Positions 11,669-31,972 of a stretch of DNA of 64,000 nucleotides are shown piece after piece. Origin of the DNA: Bacteriovoracaceae bacterium. Lineage in GTDB: Bacteria; Bdellovibrionota; Bacteriovoracia; Bacteriovoracales; Bacteriovoracaceae. The stretch spans positions 672,001-736,000 of the forward strand of contig JBLWTJ010000001.1 of the NCBI GenBank assembly GCA_048270185.1, read 5' to 3'. Under the pieces are notes generated by a model. It was not told where the DNA came from. It did not search any database and saw only the letters and a list, made by a program, of their open reading frames with translations. Every line of letters starts with the position of its first letter. Within the stretch, counting starts at the first letter, position 1. Both the position numbers and the translations under genes were made by a program.

Positions 11669-13258
11669 TTAGGCAGCTTTCTTTTGACCTTGGTCCTGAT
11701 TGAGAATTTCGATCATTCTCTCACCTAGAACTTCCATAATTGTATCTGAGAGGGACTCAAATCTGATCCCAAAACCACGTGGCCTTTGGTGTGAAGTTCG
11801 CATAATAGTGAAATCAACAGCGATAGCACGCTCAAAATTCCCTTCGGAGATATAAAGAGTTCCTCTTGTATTCTTTTTAAATTCATCTTCAAATCTTGTG
11901 ACCTCGAGAAAGCCACCACTAAGAGAAAGATTTGTTATATATCCCTTAAATTCTTTATCAACGTCCATTAACGAAAATGACACAACTTCTTGCATCTCAA
12001 CGCGATACTCCGTGCGTTCAATAAGATACTTATTATTTTCAGGGTTTTCTTTATCTTCAAAAATAAGCGTTGCTTCAGTATTAAGCTCTAGCCTTTCACT
12101 TGCTGTCATCCAAGGAGTACCTGCTTTTTTCTTAACAAGAGTATCAGGCTTAATATTTCCCTTTTCCATATCAACAAGCATTTCATCAAAACGAAGAGGT
12201 CCAACAACACCTGCGCCTGTATCATACGACCATGATTTTTTATTTGAAATTTCAAAGCTCTTACCTTTTTTAAGGCCTTCGAGATTTAAACTTTCAAGTT
12301 CTTCATCATCTGCGTGCGCACGACTACCAATCTCAAGACTACCACTGGAAATATCAAACTCACCAGTTGCCTCTTCTGTGTACTCTTCAATTCCACTAGT
12401 ATCTTTTGCAAGTTCATCCTGCGAGATCATATTAAACTTTGGAGATTCAGACGCTACAACTTCATCAAGTTGATATTCCTGTGTGCGATCCTCATCATCA
12501 TTTACTAAAATATCAGGATTTGTAGAATCGGTGATTTTCTTTTCTGTATAACTTTTAAAATGCTCTAGCTCTTGTTCTGCAACTTCTAGTTTTGCATTTA
12601 AGGCCTTAGCTTTAGCAATAACCTTGGCAAGATTCTTCTTCGCCATTTTATTTTCAACAGATAAGGTTTTATATTTAATTTTAAGTGCATTAAATTTCTT
12701 TGAATACTCTTGAGAATTAGTCCCACTATCTTCGATTTCTCTAGTTGTCGAAAGTATTTTTGTAACTTTACGATTTACATCACTAATGAGTGTCATCTCA
12801 TCAAGAACACCGTCGATCTTAGCAAGAATTAAATGACTCTTGTCTTTATCACTTGAACCAATAAATTGGGCCATCTCACCAATCTTCTCTTCTAATGTTT
12901 CAACTTTTGTTTCAAAGTCTTCTCTAACCTTTTGCATTTCAGTTTGAATGATTTTAGAAATTTCATTTAGAAGATTATTAGAAGAATTATGCTCAACTTC
13001 TTCGACCACATTGATTTGTTTTAACTCAAAACCTTTAGGTGCAACTTGTGGCATATCAAAATGATTAGGAGATACTTGCAGAGACTCGTTTATAACTTTA
13101 GGAAGTTGAATATCTTTTAAAAGTTTCCATGTAAGTGAAGATTCTTCAAAGCCATATTGATTAGAAAAGACGATGCCAGACAAAGCTTCGACATAGAGAT
13201 CATTTAGATCTACCACCCTAAAATCGGTCAATGTTTCTGCAATTATAAGCTTCTTCAA
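11669..13258 (-). CDS. coiled-coil + GYF_2 (DUF4339) + PilZ domain protein, putative c-di-GMP effector
   Basis: GYF_2-like WSY...VGPL....M..GNIKPDTLV.....W; PilZ RTEYR (RxxxR) and NLSLSG (D/NxSxxG), GFGIRF; TTG start with GAGGA RBS. Confidence 0.85.
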   Translation of the reverse strand: MKKLIIAETLTDFRVVDLNDLYVEALSGIVFSNQYGFEESSLTWKLLKDIQLPKVINESLQVSPNHFDMPQVAPKGFELKQINVVEEVEHNSSNNLLNEISKIIQTEMQKVREDFETKVETLEEKIGEMAQFIGSSDKDKSHLILAKIDGVLDEMTLISDVNRKVTKILSTTREIEDSGTNSQEYSKKFNALKIKYKTLSVENKMAKKNLAKVIAKAKALNAKLEVAEQELEHFKSYTEKKITDSTNPDILVNDDEDRTQEYQLDEVVASESPKFNMISQDELAKDTSGIEEYTEEATGEFDISSGSLEIGSRAHADDEELESLNLEGLKKGKSFEISNKKSWSYDTGAGVVGPLRFDEMLVDMEKGNIKPDTLVKKKAGTPWMTASERLELNTEATLIFEDKENPENNKYLIERTEYRVEMQEVVSFSLMDVDKEFKGYITNLSLSGGFLEVTRFEDEFKKNTRGTLYISEGNFERAIAVDFTIMRTSHQRPRGFGIRFESLSDTIMEVLGERMIEILNQDQGQKKAA

Positions 13259-13312: not shown

Positions 13313-13501
13313 ATAAAAATAGGTATTTACTCGGTTTTTATTTAACAAACTAAATATTGAACGCCATAACTGATTAAAATCATAGAACCTCCCCTTAATA
13401 TTTATTGGGCAAAATCAGTTCGCAACAATATTATTAATTGACTAAAATATGGCCATAATCTTTGGCATGACGGCCCTTAGAAAATATGACAAATTACTTT
13501 G

Positions 13502-14431
13502 ATGTATAACTTAAGTGAGAATGAACTTATCAAGACAACAGGGTTTGAAATCGATATTGTTTCAGAAATTGAAAATTCTCTAAAACAAATTGACTGTAAA
13601 TCAACACCAGAGTTCTATCTCGATGGCCAAAAAGAAGAGGCCATCAACACTTCTCTTCAAGATTTTTACCAAATATTAAAGTCATTTAGTAATAGTCACA
13701 AAGGCCCTATTACAATTTGTGATATTGGAGCCTCCTATGGAAAGATGGCATTCGTTGCACAAGCTTATTTTCCAAATATAAAAGTCATTAGTATTGAGCC
13801 AGTAAAAAAGAGAATCGATTACGCTATCAATAAATTAAAAAACTCTAAACACGTATTTATTAATGATAGATTTAGGCAAAAATACGTTAGTGAATTTGCT
13901 ATTGATTACTACTTTCTCTACTTTCCTGTTGGAGTTATTTTAGATGAAATAATTGAGGCCATAGAATCCCCAATTATCGCAATAGAAAGCCATGGAGAGC
14001 TTTTAAATCGCTTGGGACATAGCTTCAAGCAAAAGAGACAACTAACAAAACTAATCTCACCTCGTCACAACCCAAACAGCTTTATTTTTTCAGATAAATG
14101 TGAAAGCGTACTCTATCAAGAATTTAAAGAGTTTCTATCAAAAGAGAGTGATTTAATCCTAATTACAAATGAAAAGCCTTGGTATGCAGACAAGGCTGAT
14201 CTTAAATATTTCTTCGATGAAGAAGATCAGATTACACTTGAGCTTATGACGCCTCCACGTACAATCCACTTTAGTAACAATTTAGAAACGATAAAAAGCA
14301 GCGAGCTTGATACTAACGTTCAAGAAATCATTTCCATGCGACGTGAAGGTAAACAAATTGATGGATGCTTTATTCGTAAGATTTTTGTAGATGGAAGTTA
14401 TGAGCTTTCAAGTGGGGTGATTAAGAAGTAA
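13502..14431 (+). CDS. class I SAM-dependent methyltransferase-like protein
   Basis: ICDIGASYG (motif I) and VISIEP (motif II). Confidence 0.65.
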   Translation: MYNLSENELIKTTGFEIDIVSEIENSLKQIDCKSTPEFYLDGQKEEAINTSLQDFYQILKSFSNSHKGPITICDIGASYGKMAFVAQAYFPNIKVISIEPVKKRIDYAINKLKNSKHVFINDRFRQKYVSEFAIDYYFLYFPVGVILDEIIEAIESPIIAIESHGELLNRLGHSFKQKRQLTKLISPRHNPNSFIFSDKCESVLYQEFKEFLSKESDLILITNEKPWYADKADLKYFFDEEDQITLELMTPPRTIHFSNNLETIKSSELDTNVQEIISMRREGKQIDGCFIRKIFVDGSYELSSGVIKK

Positions 14432-14665
14432 CTCTTTCCCATTGCTCCTGCGGAAACAAAATCGACATAAACGTCGATTTGTTTAAATAGTATTCGAGCT
14501 AAAGACTGGGGAGCTAACACCGCATCATATCTTGCTTCCGCAAGATGCTGCGGATGTTTTCGTAAGATTTTTGTAGATGGAAGTTATGAGCTTTCAAGTG
14601 GGGTGATTAAGAAGTTATGAGCTTTCAAATGGGGTGATTAAGAAGTAACTCTTTCCCATTGCTCC
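14373..14665 (+). repeat. 76-bp direct duplication of the methyltransferase 3' end and first downstream bases; second copy carries an extra 31-bp tandem unit
   Basis: 14373-14448 is identical to 14559-14611 + 14643-14665; 14612-14642 repeats 14581-14611 with one G>A change. Confidence 0.95.
14432..14558. repeat. double-hairpin structured element, copy 1
   Basis: Hairpins at 14454-14484 and 14516-14558; homologous to 14649-14777. Confidence 0.85.
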
Positions 14666-14777
14666 AGAGGCAACAAAGCCGACATAAACGTCGGCTTGTT
14701 GAATATATTTTTTTAGCTAAAGTGCTGGGGAGCCTATAGTGCGTCAAATCTTAGCTTCGCTAAGATGCCGCACTATA
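14649..14777. repeat. double-hairpin structured element, copy 2
   Basis: Hairpins at 14671-14701 and 14735-14777 with compensatory changes relative to copy 1. Confidence 0.85.
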
Positions 14778-16176
14778 TATTTAGAGGTTTCTTATCAAAG
14801 GCATCAAGAGCAGCTTCTTTAAGCGCTTCAGAATAAGTTGGGTGCGCATGACAAATGCGTCCAATATCTTCAGCTGCAGCTCTAAATTCCATTGCCACAC
14901 AAGCTTCTGCAATTAAGTCAGCAGCACGAGGGCCTACGATGTGAACTCCAAGAACTTCGTCAGTTTCTTTACAAGCAAGTACTTTTACAAAACCAGCAGA
15001 TTCATTTGATGCACGAGCACGTCCACTTGCTTTAAATGGAAATTTTCCTGCTTTATATGGAGTCTTATTAGCTTTAAGCTCTTGTTCTGTTACACCAACT
15101 GAGGCAACTTCCGGCCATGTATAAACAACACCTGGAATTAAGTTGTAGTTAATATGTGGCTTCTGCCCAGCAATAATCTCAGCACAAACAACACCTTCTT
15201 CCTCAGCTTTGTGAGCAAGCATAGCACCAGTTGTTACATCACCAATTGCATAGATATGAGAAACATTTGTACGAAGGTGATCGTCAGTAATAACACGACC
15301 TCTCTCATCTAGGTTTACACCTGCGTTCTCAAGACCAAGGCCATCAGTGAATGGACGACGTCCTACGGCCATTAGGCAGTAGTCACCATCTAGTTTGATT
15401 TCTTCTTCATTCTTTTTGTTCTTGGCCTTAACATGTACCTTGTCGCCTTTTCTAACAACTTCAGTTACACCGTGACCAGTATAGAATTCCATTCCTTGTT
15501 TCTTTAGAACTTTCGTCATCTCTTTTGCACAATCTTTATCCATTGTTGCGAGGATCGAGTCTGCGTATTCAACAACAGAAACTTTTGAACCAAGTCTTAA
15601 AAATACTGAACCAAGCTCAAGTCCGATAACACCACCACCAATAACGATGAAATGCTTTGGAAGAGTATCAAGTTTTAGAGCTTCAGTAGATGTAATGATT
15701 CTTTCTTTATCAATTTCAATTCCAGGAATTGAAGCCGGCTTAGAACCAGTTGCAATGATGAAATTCTTAGCTTTAAGAGTTTCTTCTTTTTCACCAGATA
15801 CTTTAAGCGTATTAGCATCAACGAATGAACCAATACCATGGAAAGTTTCAACTTTATTCTTACCCATTAAGTAAGTGATCCCACCTGAAGTATCTTTTAC
15901 AACTTCAGCAACACGCGCTGCCATCTTTCCGATGTCGGCCTTAACTTTTCCAGTTGAGATACCGTGCGCTTCAAACTCATGAGTCGCTTCGTGAAATTTC
16001 TCACTTGAGTCAAGCCATGCTTTTGATGGGATACATCCAACGTTAAGGCATGTCCCACCAAGTGTATTATACTTTTCTACGATTGCTGTCTTCATTCCTA
16101 GTTGAGCACAACGAACAGCACTGATATATCCACCAGGACCTGAACCAATTATAACAACATCAAATTCTTTACTCAT
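14773..16176 (-). CDS. lpdA: dihydrolipoamide dehydrogenase (E3)
   Basis: GSGPGGY, GGTCLNVGCIPSK, MLAHKAEEEG, HAHPTYSE. Confidence 0.98.
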   Translation of the reverse strand: MSKEFDVVIIGSGPGGYISAVRCAQLGMKTAIVEKYNTLGGTCLNVGCIPSKAWLDSSEKFHEATHEFEAHGISTGKVKADIGKMAARVAEVVKDTSGGITYLMGKNKVETFHGIGSFVDANTLKVSGEKEETLKAKNFIIATGSKPASIPGIEIDKERIITSTEALKLDTLPKHFIVIGGGVIGLELGSVFLRLGSKVSVVEYADSILATMDKDCAKEMTKVLKKQGMEFYTGHGVTEVVRKGDKVHVKAKNKKNEEEIKLDGDYCLMAVGRRPFTDGLGLENAGVNLDERGRVITDDHLRTNVSHIYAIGDVTTGAMLAHKAEEEGVVCAEIIAGQKPHINYNLIPGVVYTWPEVASVGVTEQELKANKTPYKAGKFPFKASGRARASNESAGFVKVLACKETDEVLGVHIVGPRAADLIAEACVAMEFRAAAEDIGRICHAHPTYSEALKEAALDAFDKKPLNI

Positions 16177-30671: not shown

Positions 30672-31448
30672 ATGCCAGAAGCAAAAGTTATTAAGAGAAA
30701 AGAGCTCGAAAAGTTTTTAAATAAGCACTTAAATATCTATGAGTACCAAGATTACGGCCCGAATGGGCTTCAAATCGAAGGGAAAGAAGAGATCTCAAAG
30801 ATTGCCTTTGCCGTTTCGGCCCAAAGAGACTCAATCACAAAAGCCTGTGAATGGGGAGCAGATGCCCTTATTGTTCACCACGGTCTATTTTGGAAATTCC
30901 ATGGCGTTAGAAAAATCACGGGAAGCTTTGCAAAGCGAGTAAAGCCTCTTATTCAAAATGATATTAATCTATTTGGTTACCACTTACCTCTTGATGCCCA
31001 TATCGAAGATGGAAATGCTGCGGGAATCGCCAAGGCCTTAGGCCTTACAGATCTTGCACCTTATGGTGATCACAAGGGAATGCCAACTGGCCTACAGGGA
31101 AAGTTTCCAACTCCCATAACTCCAATTGAGCTAAAAGAAAAATTAAAGGCCATCCTAAATCACGAAGTCATCCACAGTGAACCTAATGAAGAAAAAATCT
31201 CTTCAATGGGAATTATCACAGGTGGAGCAAACTCAGATTGGCGCTACTGTATTAGAGAAGGGCTTGATGCCTATCTGACAGGAGAGATGAGTGAACACGA
31301 TTGGCACGAGTCACGTGAAGAAGATATTCACTTCTATGCAGGTGGACATAATGCCACAGAGAGATTTGGTGTCTTAGCTCTTAAAGAATTAATTGAAAAA
31401 GAGTTTGGGTCAGAGTGTCTCTTTATTGACTCCTCTAACCCTGCTTAA
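30672..31448 (+). CDS. Nif3-like dinuclear metal center protein (YbgI/DUF34)
   Basis: DYGPNGLQIEG, IVHHGLFW, YHLPLDAH, YLTGE, GGHNATERFG. Confidence 0.95.
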   Translation: MPEAKVIKRKELEKFLNKHLNIYEYQDYGPNGLQIEGKEEISKIAFAVSAQRDSITKACEWGADALIVHHGLFWKFHGVRKITGSFAKRVKPLIQNDINLFGYHLPLDAHIEDGNAAGIAKALGLTDLAPYGDHKGMPTGLQGKFPTPITPIELKEKLKAILNHEVIHSEPNEEKISSMGIITGGANSDWRYCIREGLDAYLTGEMSEHDWHESREEDIHFYAGGHNATERFGVLALKELIEKEFGSECLFIDSSNPA

Positions 31449-31480
31449 GTAACTGCGAAATTGTTCGTCTCAGGAGTGAT

Positions 31481-31972
31481 CTACTTTCTTTTAAGAGAAA
31501 GCGTAATCACGAATTTTGCAACAGGCTCATCTCCTGAAATGTCAGGGCAAGTTGCGATAATATTAAGAGGAAGGTTGTGACGCTCATCACTTGCTAAGAC
31601 CTTCTCAACAAAAGCGTCAATTTCTTTACCTTGAGTACAAGTAAAGACAGTATCCCCTTCGGCCCTTTTTAAAAACTCAGCATGAAATTCTTTAAAGGCC
31701 AAAGAAACTCTCTTCCCCTTATCCATCGTTTTTTTCATAGCAGCAAAACCACCTGCAAGATCCGCACCGCAAGCAAGGGCACCAAAGTACATACTATTTA
31801 AATGATTCTTTGAACGACGAGATAGAGGGATTTTAATTGCTGTCACTTCTTCATTTAATTCAAGAACTGATGGACGAAGCCAAAAAATCATAGGAACTTT
31901 TGTTAGTCCAAATAGTCTAACAAAGGCAGTATTTCTTAAACCTTCAGGTAATTTATCTAAAACTTTTTTCAT
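31481..31972 (-). CDS. DUF4442/PaaI-like hot-dog fold thioesterase
   Basis: KNHLNSMYFGAL..GADLAGG, AEFLKRAEG. Confidence 0.8.
   Translation of the reverse strand: MKKVLDKLPEGLRNTAFVRLFGLTKVPMIFWLRPSVLELNEEVTAIKIPLSRRSKNHLNSMYFGALACGADLAGGFAAMKKTMDKGKRVSLAFKEFHAEFLKRAEGDTVFTCTQGKEIDAFVEKVLASDERHNLPLNIIATCPDISGDEPVAKFVITLSLKRK

Follow-up and report, generated by a model that had tools for sequence, protein, structure and literature searches.

Detailed descriptions of small structured repeats, which influence operon ends, the stability of mRNA and the rearrangement of genomes, exist for only a few model bacteria. The BIME/REP sequences of enterobacteria are extragenic mosaics of palindromes and linkers, which are found at the 3' ends of genes and within operons, near stop codons and in clusters, and which reach hundreds of copies. 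Protection of mRNA 3' ends, termination of transcription and binding of proteins have been proposed as their roles. RIME of Rhizobium and the pneumococcal BOX elements are taxon-restricted, intergenic and modular repeats of approximately 100–200 nt, with two or more large palindromes, variable modules and no known transposase. REPs proper are palindromes of 20–40 nt with a GTAG/CGTC end tag. In the accessible part of the article by Di Nocera et al. 2013 (PMC3733652), palindromic repeat families are described, including a CGTC type without a dedicated transposase, with stems of 8–9 bp and loops of 4–5 nt; GTAG/CGTC REPs are there considered plausibly transcribed and often form dimers with structured spacers, and Bdellovibrio is not named in that part. 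REPIN/RAYT systems and PATEs are hairpin-based, have no inverted terminal repeats, insert in an oriented way and come with a Y1 gene flanked by its own repeats. An intrinsic terminator, finally, is a GC-rich hairpin with a T run immediately behind it; in bidirectional ones the hairpin stands between A/T tracts.

The element described here was first noticed as two copies beside an lpdA-type gene. As judged from its sequence, the family is a genus-specific, non-coding repeat of about 130 nt of marine predatory bacteria. It has the palindrome–linker organisation of BIME/REP as well as the preference for gene 3' ends, operons, stop codons and clusters, but its 10–24 copies per genome are few for a REP-like family, its unit is larger, a long-range closing helix surrounds the inner hairpin and no cognate RAYT was found. 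All the traits listed above for RIME and BOX apply to it as well; it differs from them in belonging to another phylum, in the stop codon within its terminal stem and in the recurrent duplication of coding tails. Noteworthy are the terminal stem that carries a stop codon and the repeated rebuilding of coding tails. Compared with the CGTC REPs, its terminal hairpin P3 is much longer (approximately 20 bp) and contains an internal loop; one P3 subtype starts with CGTC on the gene-sense strand, but the tag is not family-wide. With REPIN/RAYT systems and PATEs it shares the hairpins, the lack of inverted terminal repeats and the oriented insertion, whereas none of the four Y1 genes of its genome is flanked by its copies, and at approximately 130 nt and with three helices it stands apart from the REP palindrome. 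Like a bidirectional terminator, it places a GC-rich hairpin between A/T tracts, and the two share their position at the lpdA site; the element is, however, much larger, repeated and conserved outside the stems, and its inner hairpin is not called by a terminator scan. On the basis of their descriptions, the element is best filed by kind with BIME, RIME and BOX; a likeness in sequence to BIME/REP would not be expected.

The lpdA locus

The window, i.e. the whole stretch of DNA that was analysed (64,000 nt), belongs to the genome of a Bacteriovoracaceae bacterium, designated G000 (3.35 Mb, 36.6% G+C). Positions given below are those of the window unless another sequence is named. The features of the locus are as follows.

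13499..14431, plus strand: 310-aa ORF, no Pfam family; its stop TAA (14429–14431) abuts the TTTCCC end of copy 1
14373..14429, plus strand: coding tail of 57 nt, first copy of the flank repeat, 100% identical to 14559–14615
14432..14558, plus strand: copy 1 of the element, covariance-model score 109 bits
14444–14448 with 14510–14514, plus strand: helix P1 of copy 1
14454–14466 with 14473–14484, plus strand: helix P2 of copy 1, loop 14467–14472
14516–14535 with 14540–14558, plus strand: helix P3 of copy 1, loop 14536–14539
14559..14615, plus strand: second, non-coding copy of the 57-nt tail, beginning immediately after P3 of copy 1
14616..14648, plus strand: partial tail repeat of 31 nt (14616–14646) plus TAA, abutting copy 2
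14649..14777, plus strand: copy 2 of the element, covariance-model score 124 bits
14661–14665 with 14729–14733, plus strand: helix P1 of copy 2
14671–14683 with 14690–14701, plus strand: helix P2 of copy 2, loop 14684–14689
14735–14755 with 14759–14777, plus strand: helix P3 of copy 2, loop 14756–14758
14773..16176, minus strand: dihydrolipoyl dehydrogenase (lpdA-type) gene with pyridine nucleotide-disulphide oxidoreductase domains

A preliminary description of this locus, made from the sequence, had reported two copies at 14432–14558 and 14649–14777 with two hairpins each. On re-reading the sequence, both copies and both hairpins were confirmed as written, including the three compensated pairs and the one-base A bulge of the first hairpin and the linkers AGCTAAAG and CTGGGGAGC common to both copies. 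The suggested pairing of GCTCC (14444–14448; 14661–14665) with GGAGC (14510–14514; 14729–14733) is possible in the sequence, and the helix that it forms, P1, covaries across the family. The stop codon of lpdA was likewise correctly placed within the last stem: TAG at 14773–14775 falls within 14769–14777, inside the 3' arm of the P3 of copy 2. The reading as a tandem repeat of about 128 nt held in part, in that the two copies are real; they do not form a simple tandem, as the 57-nt and 31-nt tail repeats intervene. The order is gene, tail, copy 1, tail, partial tail, copy 2 and lpdA. The bodies of the two copies are 75–90% alike, whereas the 57-nt tails are identical. Since the 57-nt tail recurs between the copies, the repeated unit is the element together with the coding tail.

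When compared with shuffled sequences, RNA folds of copies 1 and 2 gave z = −5.1 and −6.8, respectively, on the plus strand and −3.0 and −5.2 on the minus strand, and DNA folds of both copies gave z = −4.6 to −6.3. Relatives of the 310-aa ORF are present in all 13 genomes of the genus. The lpdA-type gene is the last after sucA/sucB-type genes and is preceded by a 2-oxoacid acyltransferase ORF (domain search) and a 914-aa ORF, the latter taken as sucA-type by position and size. On the other side, a 529-aa ORF (11669–13258, minus strand) has a C-terminal PilZ domain and a weak match to GYF_2.

Distribution of the family

In G000, nhmmer returned 17 matches at E ≤ 1, 15 of them below 1e-5, and the strong matches were spread over four contigs (BLAST and nhmmer). 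A covariance model trained on 11 copies from the same genome retrieved 131 matches in 10 of the 13 genomes of the genus, namely G002 (24), G004 (23), G011 (21), G000 (16), G008 (16), G009 (12), G007 (10), G006 (4), G012 (4) and G001 (1), and none in G003, G005 and G010. The 15 strong nhmmer matches and the 131 matches to the covariance model exclude chance. The proposed search of own and related genomes therefore did uncover further copies, and the number of matches and genomes, together with the compensatory helices described below, bears out a repeat family rather than a one-off terminator.

At the family level, 6 of 121 genomes gave a match, and four of these belong to the genus itself. Outside the genus (117 genomes of 68 other genera), the search yielded two weak partial matches of 31.9–34.1 bits, both in one genus. 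A BLAST survey of 41 relatives agreed with the range obtained with the covariance model; the nearest relative with a name, and the only one among those returned, was Halobacteriovorax sp. CON-3. Comparison with Rfam, also at permissive thresholds, matched no family, as the preliminary description would have it for a new element: the best score for the window was 24.2 bits (gathering threshold 47), and for 13 other copies the best scores were 35.5 (threshold 55) and 32.5 (threshold 149.1). Collections of plasmids and phages contained no match to the element. We found no description of the family in the available text of the literature on repeats of Halobacteriovorax and Bdellovibrionota and on intergenic mosaic elements, Halobacteriovorax genome papers included.

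Secondary structure and modules

We aligned 115 copies from 100 sources, read on the strand that corresponds to the plus strand of the window. From its start, the element consists of the conserved unpaired motif TTTCCCATTG, the 5' strand of P1, a short WGAG junction, P2, an AT-rich linker, the 3' strand of P1 and P3. P1 is a closing helix, which occurs in the variants GCTCC/GGAGC, GGCCT/AGGCC, GCGCY/GGCGC and ACCGCC/GGCGGT and encloses P2. In its commonest type, P2 has a GC-rich top of 6–7 bp on a CAACAAA/TTGTTG base; it is flanked by complementary A- and T-rich tracts, and one of its subtypes keeps a conserved 2×2 mismatch. P3 measures approximately 20 bp, and its outer arm ends in ...TGCTTA or a similar sequence and includes or adjoins the stop codon of the opposite-strand gene. 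In the main P3 type, a conserved internal loop with CAATAG opposite CAAT is bordered by three invariant pairs; the P3 of both window copies is of the shorter type, whose internal loop has TCAW facing GC. An additional hairpin module, P0, lies upstream, together with a T-rich stretch, in 25 of the 115 copies. In total, at least four types of P2, two of P3 and four of the linker, as well as the optional P0, are combined freely.

In P1 and P2, 91.8% of the cells of the 115-copy alignment are paired, against at most 49.1% when the partners are slid; double changes occur in 15 of 17 pairs, and the covariation score was reached by none of 500 shuffles. P3 was analysed in 58 sequences with a shared 54-nt register, which comprise 51 of the 52 copies of the main type (one truncated array member was dropped) and 7 of the 40 others; 33 segments that were of the short type, truncated or aberrant were excluded. 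Here 93.3% of the cells are paired (at most 41.5% when slid), with double changes in 11 of 20 pairs. It should be noted that covariation was counted over related copies, which overstates the number of independent events, and part of it may reflect the swapping of modules instead of compensatory mutation. The earlier proposal that the structure is under selection is nevertheless upheld, as P1 and P2 (115 copies) and P3 (58 sequences) are all kept by compensatory changes. The loop motifs on the minus strand, which had been pointed out in the two copies, are not conserved across the family.

Position at gene ends

All 14 loci considered in G000 have an opposite-strand ORF whose 3' end is turned towards the P3 end of the element, in 12 of them at a distance of −5 to +6 nt, and 11 of the 14 lie between convergent genes. 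The neighbours are metG, rpsD, etfA, nqrF, groEL, guaA, a dcp-type peptidase gene, rpsA, ychF and lpdA, together with four genes without an NCBIfam name. Among the 115 aligned copies, 85 have an opposite-strand stop codon within −11 to +3 nt of the end of the model, most often at +1 (28 copies), −6 (20) and −3 (18). The other 30 are mostly inner members of arrays, truncated copies or copies with a duplicated coding tail. The conserved end ...GCGGNTGCTTA itself carries the complement of TAA. The stops touched in the 85 cases are TAA (54) and TAG (31). TGA, with which 211 of 2169 long ORFs in the genome end, does not occur among them; given the dependence between copies, no conclusion is based on this. 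Some copies in relatives are located inside operons, for instance one between groES and groEL in G012. The P2 subtype with imperfect pairing (25 copies) is found at convergent sites in about half of the cases, with no clear split towards intra-operon positions.

The lpdA site with and without the element

The preliminary description had called for a comparison of orthologous loci, and this revealed an lpdA site free of the element. In G008 and G009 the site is occupied by a plain hairpin, GGCACC-CTAA-GGTGCC, located between an A run and a T-rich sequence and overlapping the end of the 310-aa gene. In G002 and G004, a single element is found there, the C-terminus of LpdA is unchanged and the stop codon lies inside P3; G002 has TAA here, G000 and G004 have TAG, and the pairing of P3 is kept. 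No second hairpin was detected between the two stop codons in G002, G004 and G000. In G011 and in strain CON-3 the terminator is retained and copy 1 lies further upstream. The presence of a terminator in G008 and G009, and of the element in its place elsewhere, indicates that the element can replace a bidirectional terminator.

A simple terminator scan did not call P2 in either direction, and its sole call was a small hairpin inside the P3 of copy 1. The tails of P2 read TTGTTGAA and TTTGTTG and are mutually complementary. As P2 is not called by the scan, the terminator role is argued from the comparison of lpdA sites. It is probable that the element has been taken over as a terminator or stabiliser of gene ends. 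The view that it is not a plain terminator was well founded, given the dispersed family and the conserved sequence outside the stems.

Tail duplications, alleles and remnants

Tandem arrays of 2–6 units with periods of 117–234 nt occur in several genomes. Repeats in the flanks scored above shuffled controls in 12 of 107 copies, the remaining 95 scoring below 18. Array cases aside, duplications of the flanks were found at four independent loci and measured 29–100 nt. At each of the four, a plus-strand gene has its stop codon directly at the TTTCCC end, and a decaying second copy of its last 29–100 nt starts exactly where P3 ends. Copy 1 in the window is one of these four.

A comparison with G011 showed that positions 14270–14558, i.e. 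the last 160 nt of the 310-aa gene plus copy 1, are 97–100% identical in the two genomes, while the gene is otherwise 50–75% identical. In G011 the shared block is followed by that genome's own diverged tail, and the body of copy 1 is identical in the loci L016 and L014 of relatives, the latter from strain CON-3. A block of 97–100% identity within a diverged gene points to a recent exchange of the gene end together with the element. Furthermore, a contig from a seawater metagenome (X4) joins 14372 directly to 14559, so that copy 1 and one tail are missing exactly, and a loose end in X3 has the same form as the X4 junction. As an allele without copy 1 exists in the metagenome, the unit is polymorphic in nature. 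It was either gained by a tail-duplicating insertion or lost through recombination between the tails. Positions 14464–14557 were left uncovered by the contigs of four metagenome runs, two of which cover both sides with the copy-1-free allele; this observation refers to contigs only and does not speak for absence. The C-terminus of the 310-aa ORF varies with the allele: in G004 the reading frame continues into the element, and in the metagenome allele the protein would end in ...KKL*.

The window also contains a decayed copy:

31449..31480, minus strand: internally deleted remnant of 32 nt, in which the element start is joined directly to the P3 end

This remnant fills the gap between the convergent stop codons of the ORFs at 30672–31448 (plus strand) and 31481–31972 (minus strand), and full copies occupy the same site in G008 (L115) and G009 (L123). 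Among sequenced relatives, there are alleles with the element, without it, with a decayed copy and with a recently exchanged one. For annotation, caution is advisable, since neighbouring ORFs have their C-termini lengthened or changed by the repeats and duplicated tails may be mistaken for genes or assembly errors.

Origin and role

We consider it probable that the element is a mosaic intergenic repeat, restricted to the genus and of the BIME/RIME/BOX kind, which spreads and is reshuffled at the DNA level and has been co-opted at gene ends. The copies are non-coding, taxon-restricted and close to gene ends, with interchangeable modules and arrays. Spread and reshuffling at the DNA level are inferred from the module swaps, the arrays, the decay by internal deletion and the exchange of gene ends between species. 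At gene ends, P2 would work like a terminator hairpin in both directions, and P3, close to the stop codon, could stabilise or modulate the upstream mRNA, as in enterobacterial REP/BIME. Within the window, one unit would occupy the usual place at the lpdA stop, and the second may have arrived, or have been duplicated, together with 57 nt of the coding tail of the other gene. The flank duplications of 29–100 nt at the four loci fall outside every step of this model. If the model is correct, a selfish-looking repeat does the job of a terminator at essential operons, including sucAB-lpd, groESL, nqr and ribosomal protein genes.

A possible, if doubtful, alternative is that the element is a structured RNA, either a gene-sense 3'-UTR module acting in termination, stop decoding or mRNA decay, or an antisense small RNA of the plus strand; the copies in the DNA would then simply be the genes for this RNA. 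The three helices with compensatory changes and the conserved unpaired motifs would be expected of such an RNA, and so would the stop codon inside P3 with pairing kept across TAA (G002) and TAG (G000); most neighbouring genes are of the highly expressed housekeeping type, and copies are found in operons such as groES–groEL of G012. The strands were compared for traces of an RNA. Of 102 distinct copies, 68 give a slightly more stable fold on the gene-sense strand (minus in the window), with a mean advantage of 1.4 kcal/mol, and the 2×2 mismatch of one P2 subtype reads GA/GA on that strand only, which together hint at an RNA or single-strand role of the gene-sense strand. An RNA made from one strand would, however, be expected to show GU pairs on one strand and A–C on the other, whereas GU pairs in whole-element folds are equally rare on both (278 of 4396 against 272 of 4256). 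In P1 and P2, 17 GU stand against 35 AC, 28 of the latter coming from one column pair of a misaligned subtype, which leaves 7. The strand signals are divergent and weak, and neither strand is clearly favoured.

Conservation also speaks against the structured RNA. In 27 orthologous pairs, the mean identity of the element to the G000 copy is 73%, compared with 76% for the left and 86% for the right flank, and the element exceeds both flanks in 5 pairs; the same site in different species is often occupied by different subtypes. Lower identity than that of the flanks and switches of subtype argue for turnover and module exchange and not for the conservation of an indispensable RNA. Moreover, the lpdA site works without the element in G008, G009 and G011, no Rfam family was matched, and P1 spans the bidirectional-terminator-like P2, so that a transcript ending there could not form P1.

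An unlikely explanation of the tail duplications would be a new kind of mobile hairpin DNA that targets gene ends, its terminal stem on the stop codon, with a tail-duplicating insertion that rebuilds the gene, travel between species as a cassette of gene end and element, and an enzyme that is supplied by the host or unrecognised, the element having no transposase gene of its own. It would enter the last 30–100 nt of a gene in one orientation, duplicate the tail and leave the old tail behind. If the tail duplications are indeed products of insertion, the mechanism would be new. No transposase or recombinase was found for the element. An autonomous parent was not found either, as the 5' motif occurs ten times in G000, in eight short copies and two unrelated coding matches.

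Quite improbable, though surmised in the preliminary description, is mobilisation of the REPIN/PATE type, in which a Y1 HUH transposase (RAYT or IS200/IS605 TnpA) would recognise the bulged hairpins and move the element in single-stranded form. Imperfect hairpins with conserved bulges and mismatches, the lack of terminal inverted repeats, the usual lack of target duplications and the constant orientation of insertion would all suit such a transposase, and the strand symmetry fits DNA. The genome does have four Y1_Tnp genes of RAYT size (33–40 bits), all outside the window:

C1:821330-821959, G000: RAYT-like Y1 gene
C1:563186-563863, G000: RAYT-like Y1 gene
C1:1332794-1333516, G000: RAYT-like Y1 gene
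C3:365808-366500, G000: RAYT-like Y1 gene

The suspected link to HUH nucleases was not borne out, since every one of these genes has an inverted repeat of its own on both sides, unlike this element; the search for RAYT/TnpA genes flanked by copies thus came back empty among these four. Y1 genes are also present in the element-free genomes G003, G005 and G010. There is no conserved GTAG tag, and CGTC appears only in the TAGCGTC subtype of P3. PATEs have subterminal hairpins at both ends and insert 3' of a fixed tetra- or pentanucleotide. Here, P3 occupies a subterminal position at one end, most copies lack such a hairpin at the other (P0 in 25 of 115 copies), and the only constant neighbour is a TAA or TAG stop codon (85 copies). 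The REP-like repeats of the four Y1 genes also abut stop codons and sometimes adjoin copies of the element.

A SINE-like retro-element, copied via RNA and inserted by target-primed reverse transcription, is very improbable. It would account for a constant P3 end with the other end variable or truncated, for the 29–100-nt flank duplications at four loci and for the TAAGCA-like microhomology at some empty sites. RVT_1 genes, however, were found in 5 of the 13 genomes of the genus and do not track the element; they are missing from G002, G004 and G011, which carry 21–24 copies, and on this ground the link to a reverse transcriptase was rejected. In addition, 95 of the 107 copies have no flank duplication (score below 18), and there is no A-tail. 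The notion of a merely local tandem duplication of an ordinary terminator region, which would suit the duplicated coding tail and the population variant without one unit, can be practically dismissed in view of 131 matches at unrelated loci in 10 genomes and of bodies that are 75–90% alike between identical tails.

Other element classes and associated repeats

Several further classes were considered and rejected. The ends of the element (..YAAC TTTCCCATTG.. and ..GCGGNTGCTTA) are not inverted repeats and there is no target duplication of fixed length, which rules against a MITE. The attC sites of integrons have RYYYAAC ... GTTRRRY cores that pair end to end and form arrays next to an integrase; the end cores of the element do not fit this by eye, and its copies are dispersed beside housekeeping genes. 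Also by eye, a promoter inside the element was dropped on account of its spacing, and a small ORF starting from the ATGGGAAAG end because its frame is lost where the T run varies.

Other repeats were observed near the copies. A second element type of approximately 150 nt has the same first 20 nt (TTTCCCATTGCTCCTGAGAC) as the family, followed by a different, hairpin-rich body, and lies upstream of copies at five loci (L039, L048, L004, L069 and L091). Upstream of the element at one locus of G004 (L052), at least three P0 modules stand alone in tandem with a period of about 50 nt. At a locus of G002 (L040), approximately 20 GGGTT pentamers directly precede the upstream hairpin module, about 100 nt upstream of the element. 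Finally, a second, tiny palindromic repeat of about 50 nt lies within the loops of P2 or P3 of several copies (L121:701-885, L093:701-885, L105:701-885, L077:701-886 and L073:1023-1130) and is also found beside copies in L072 and L106, as if it targeted hairpin loops.
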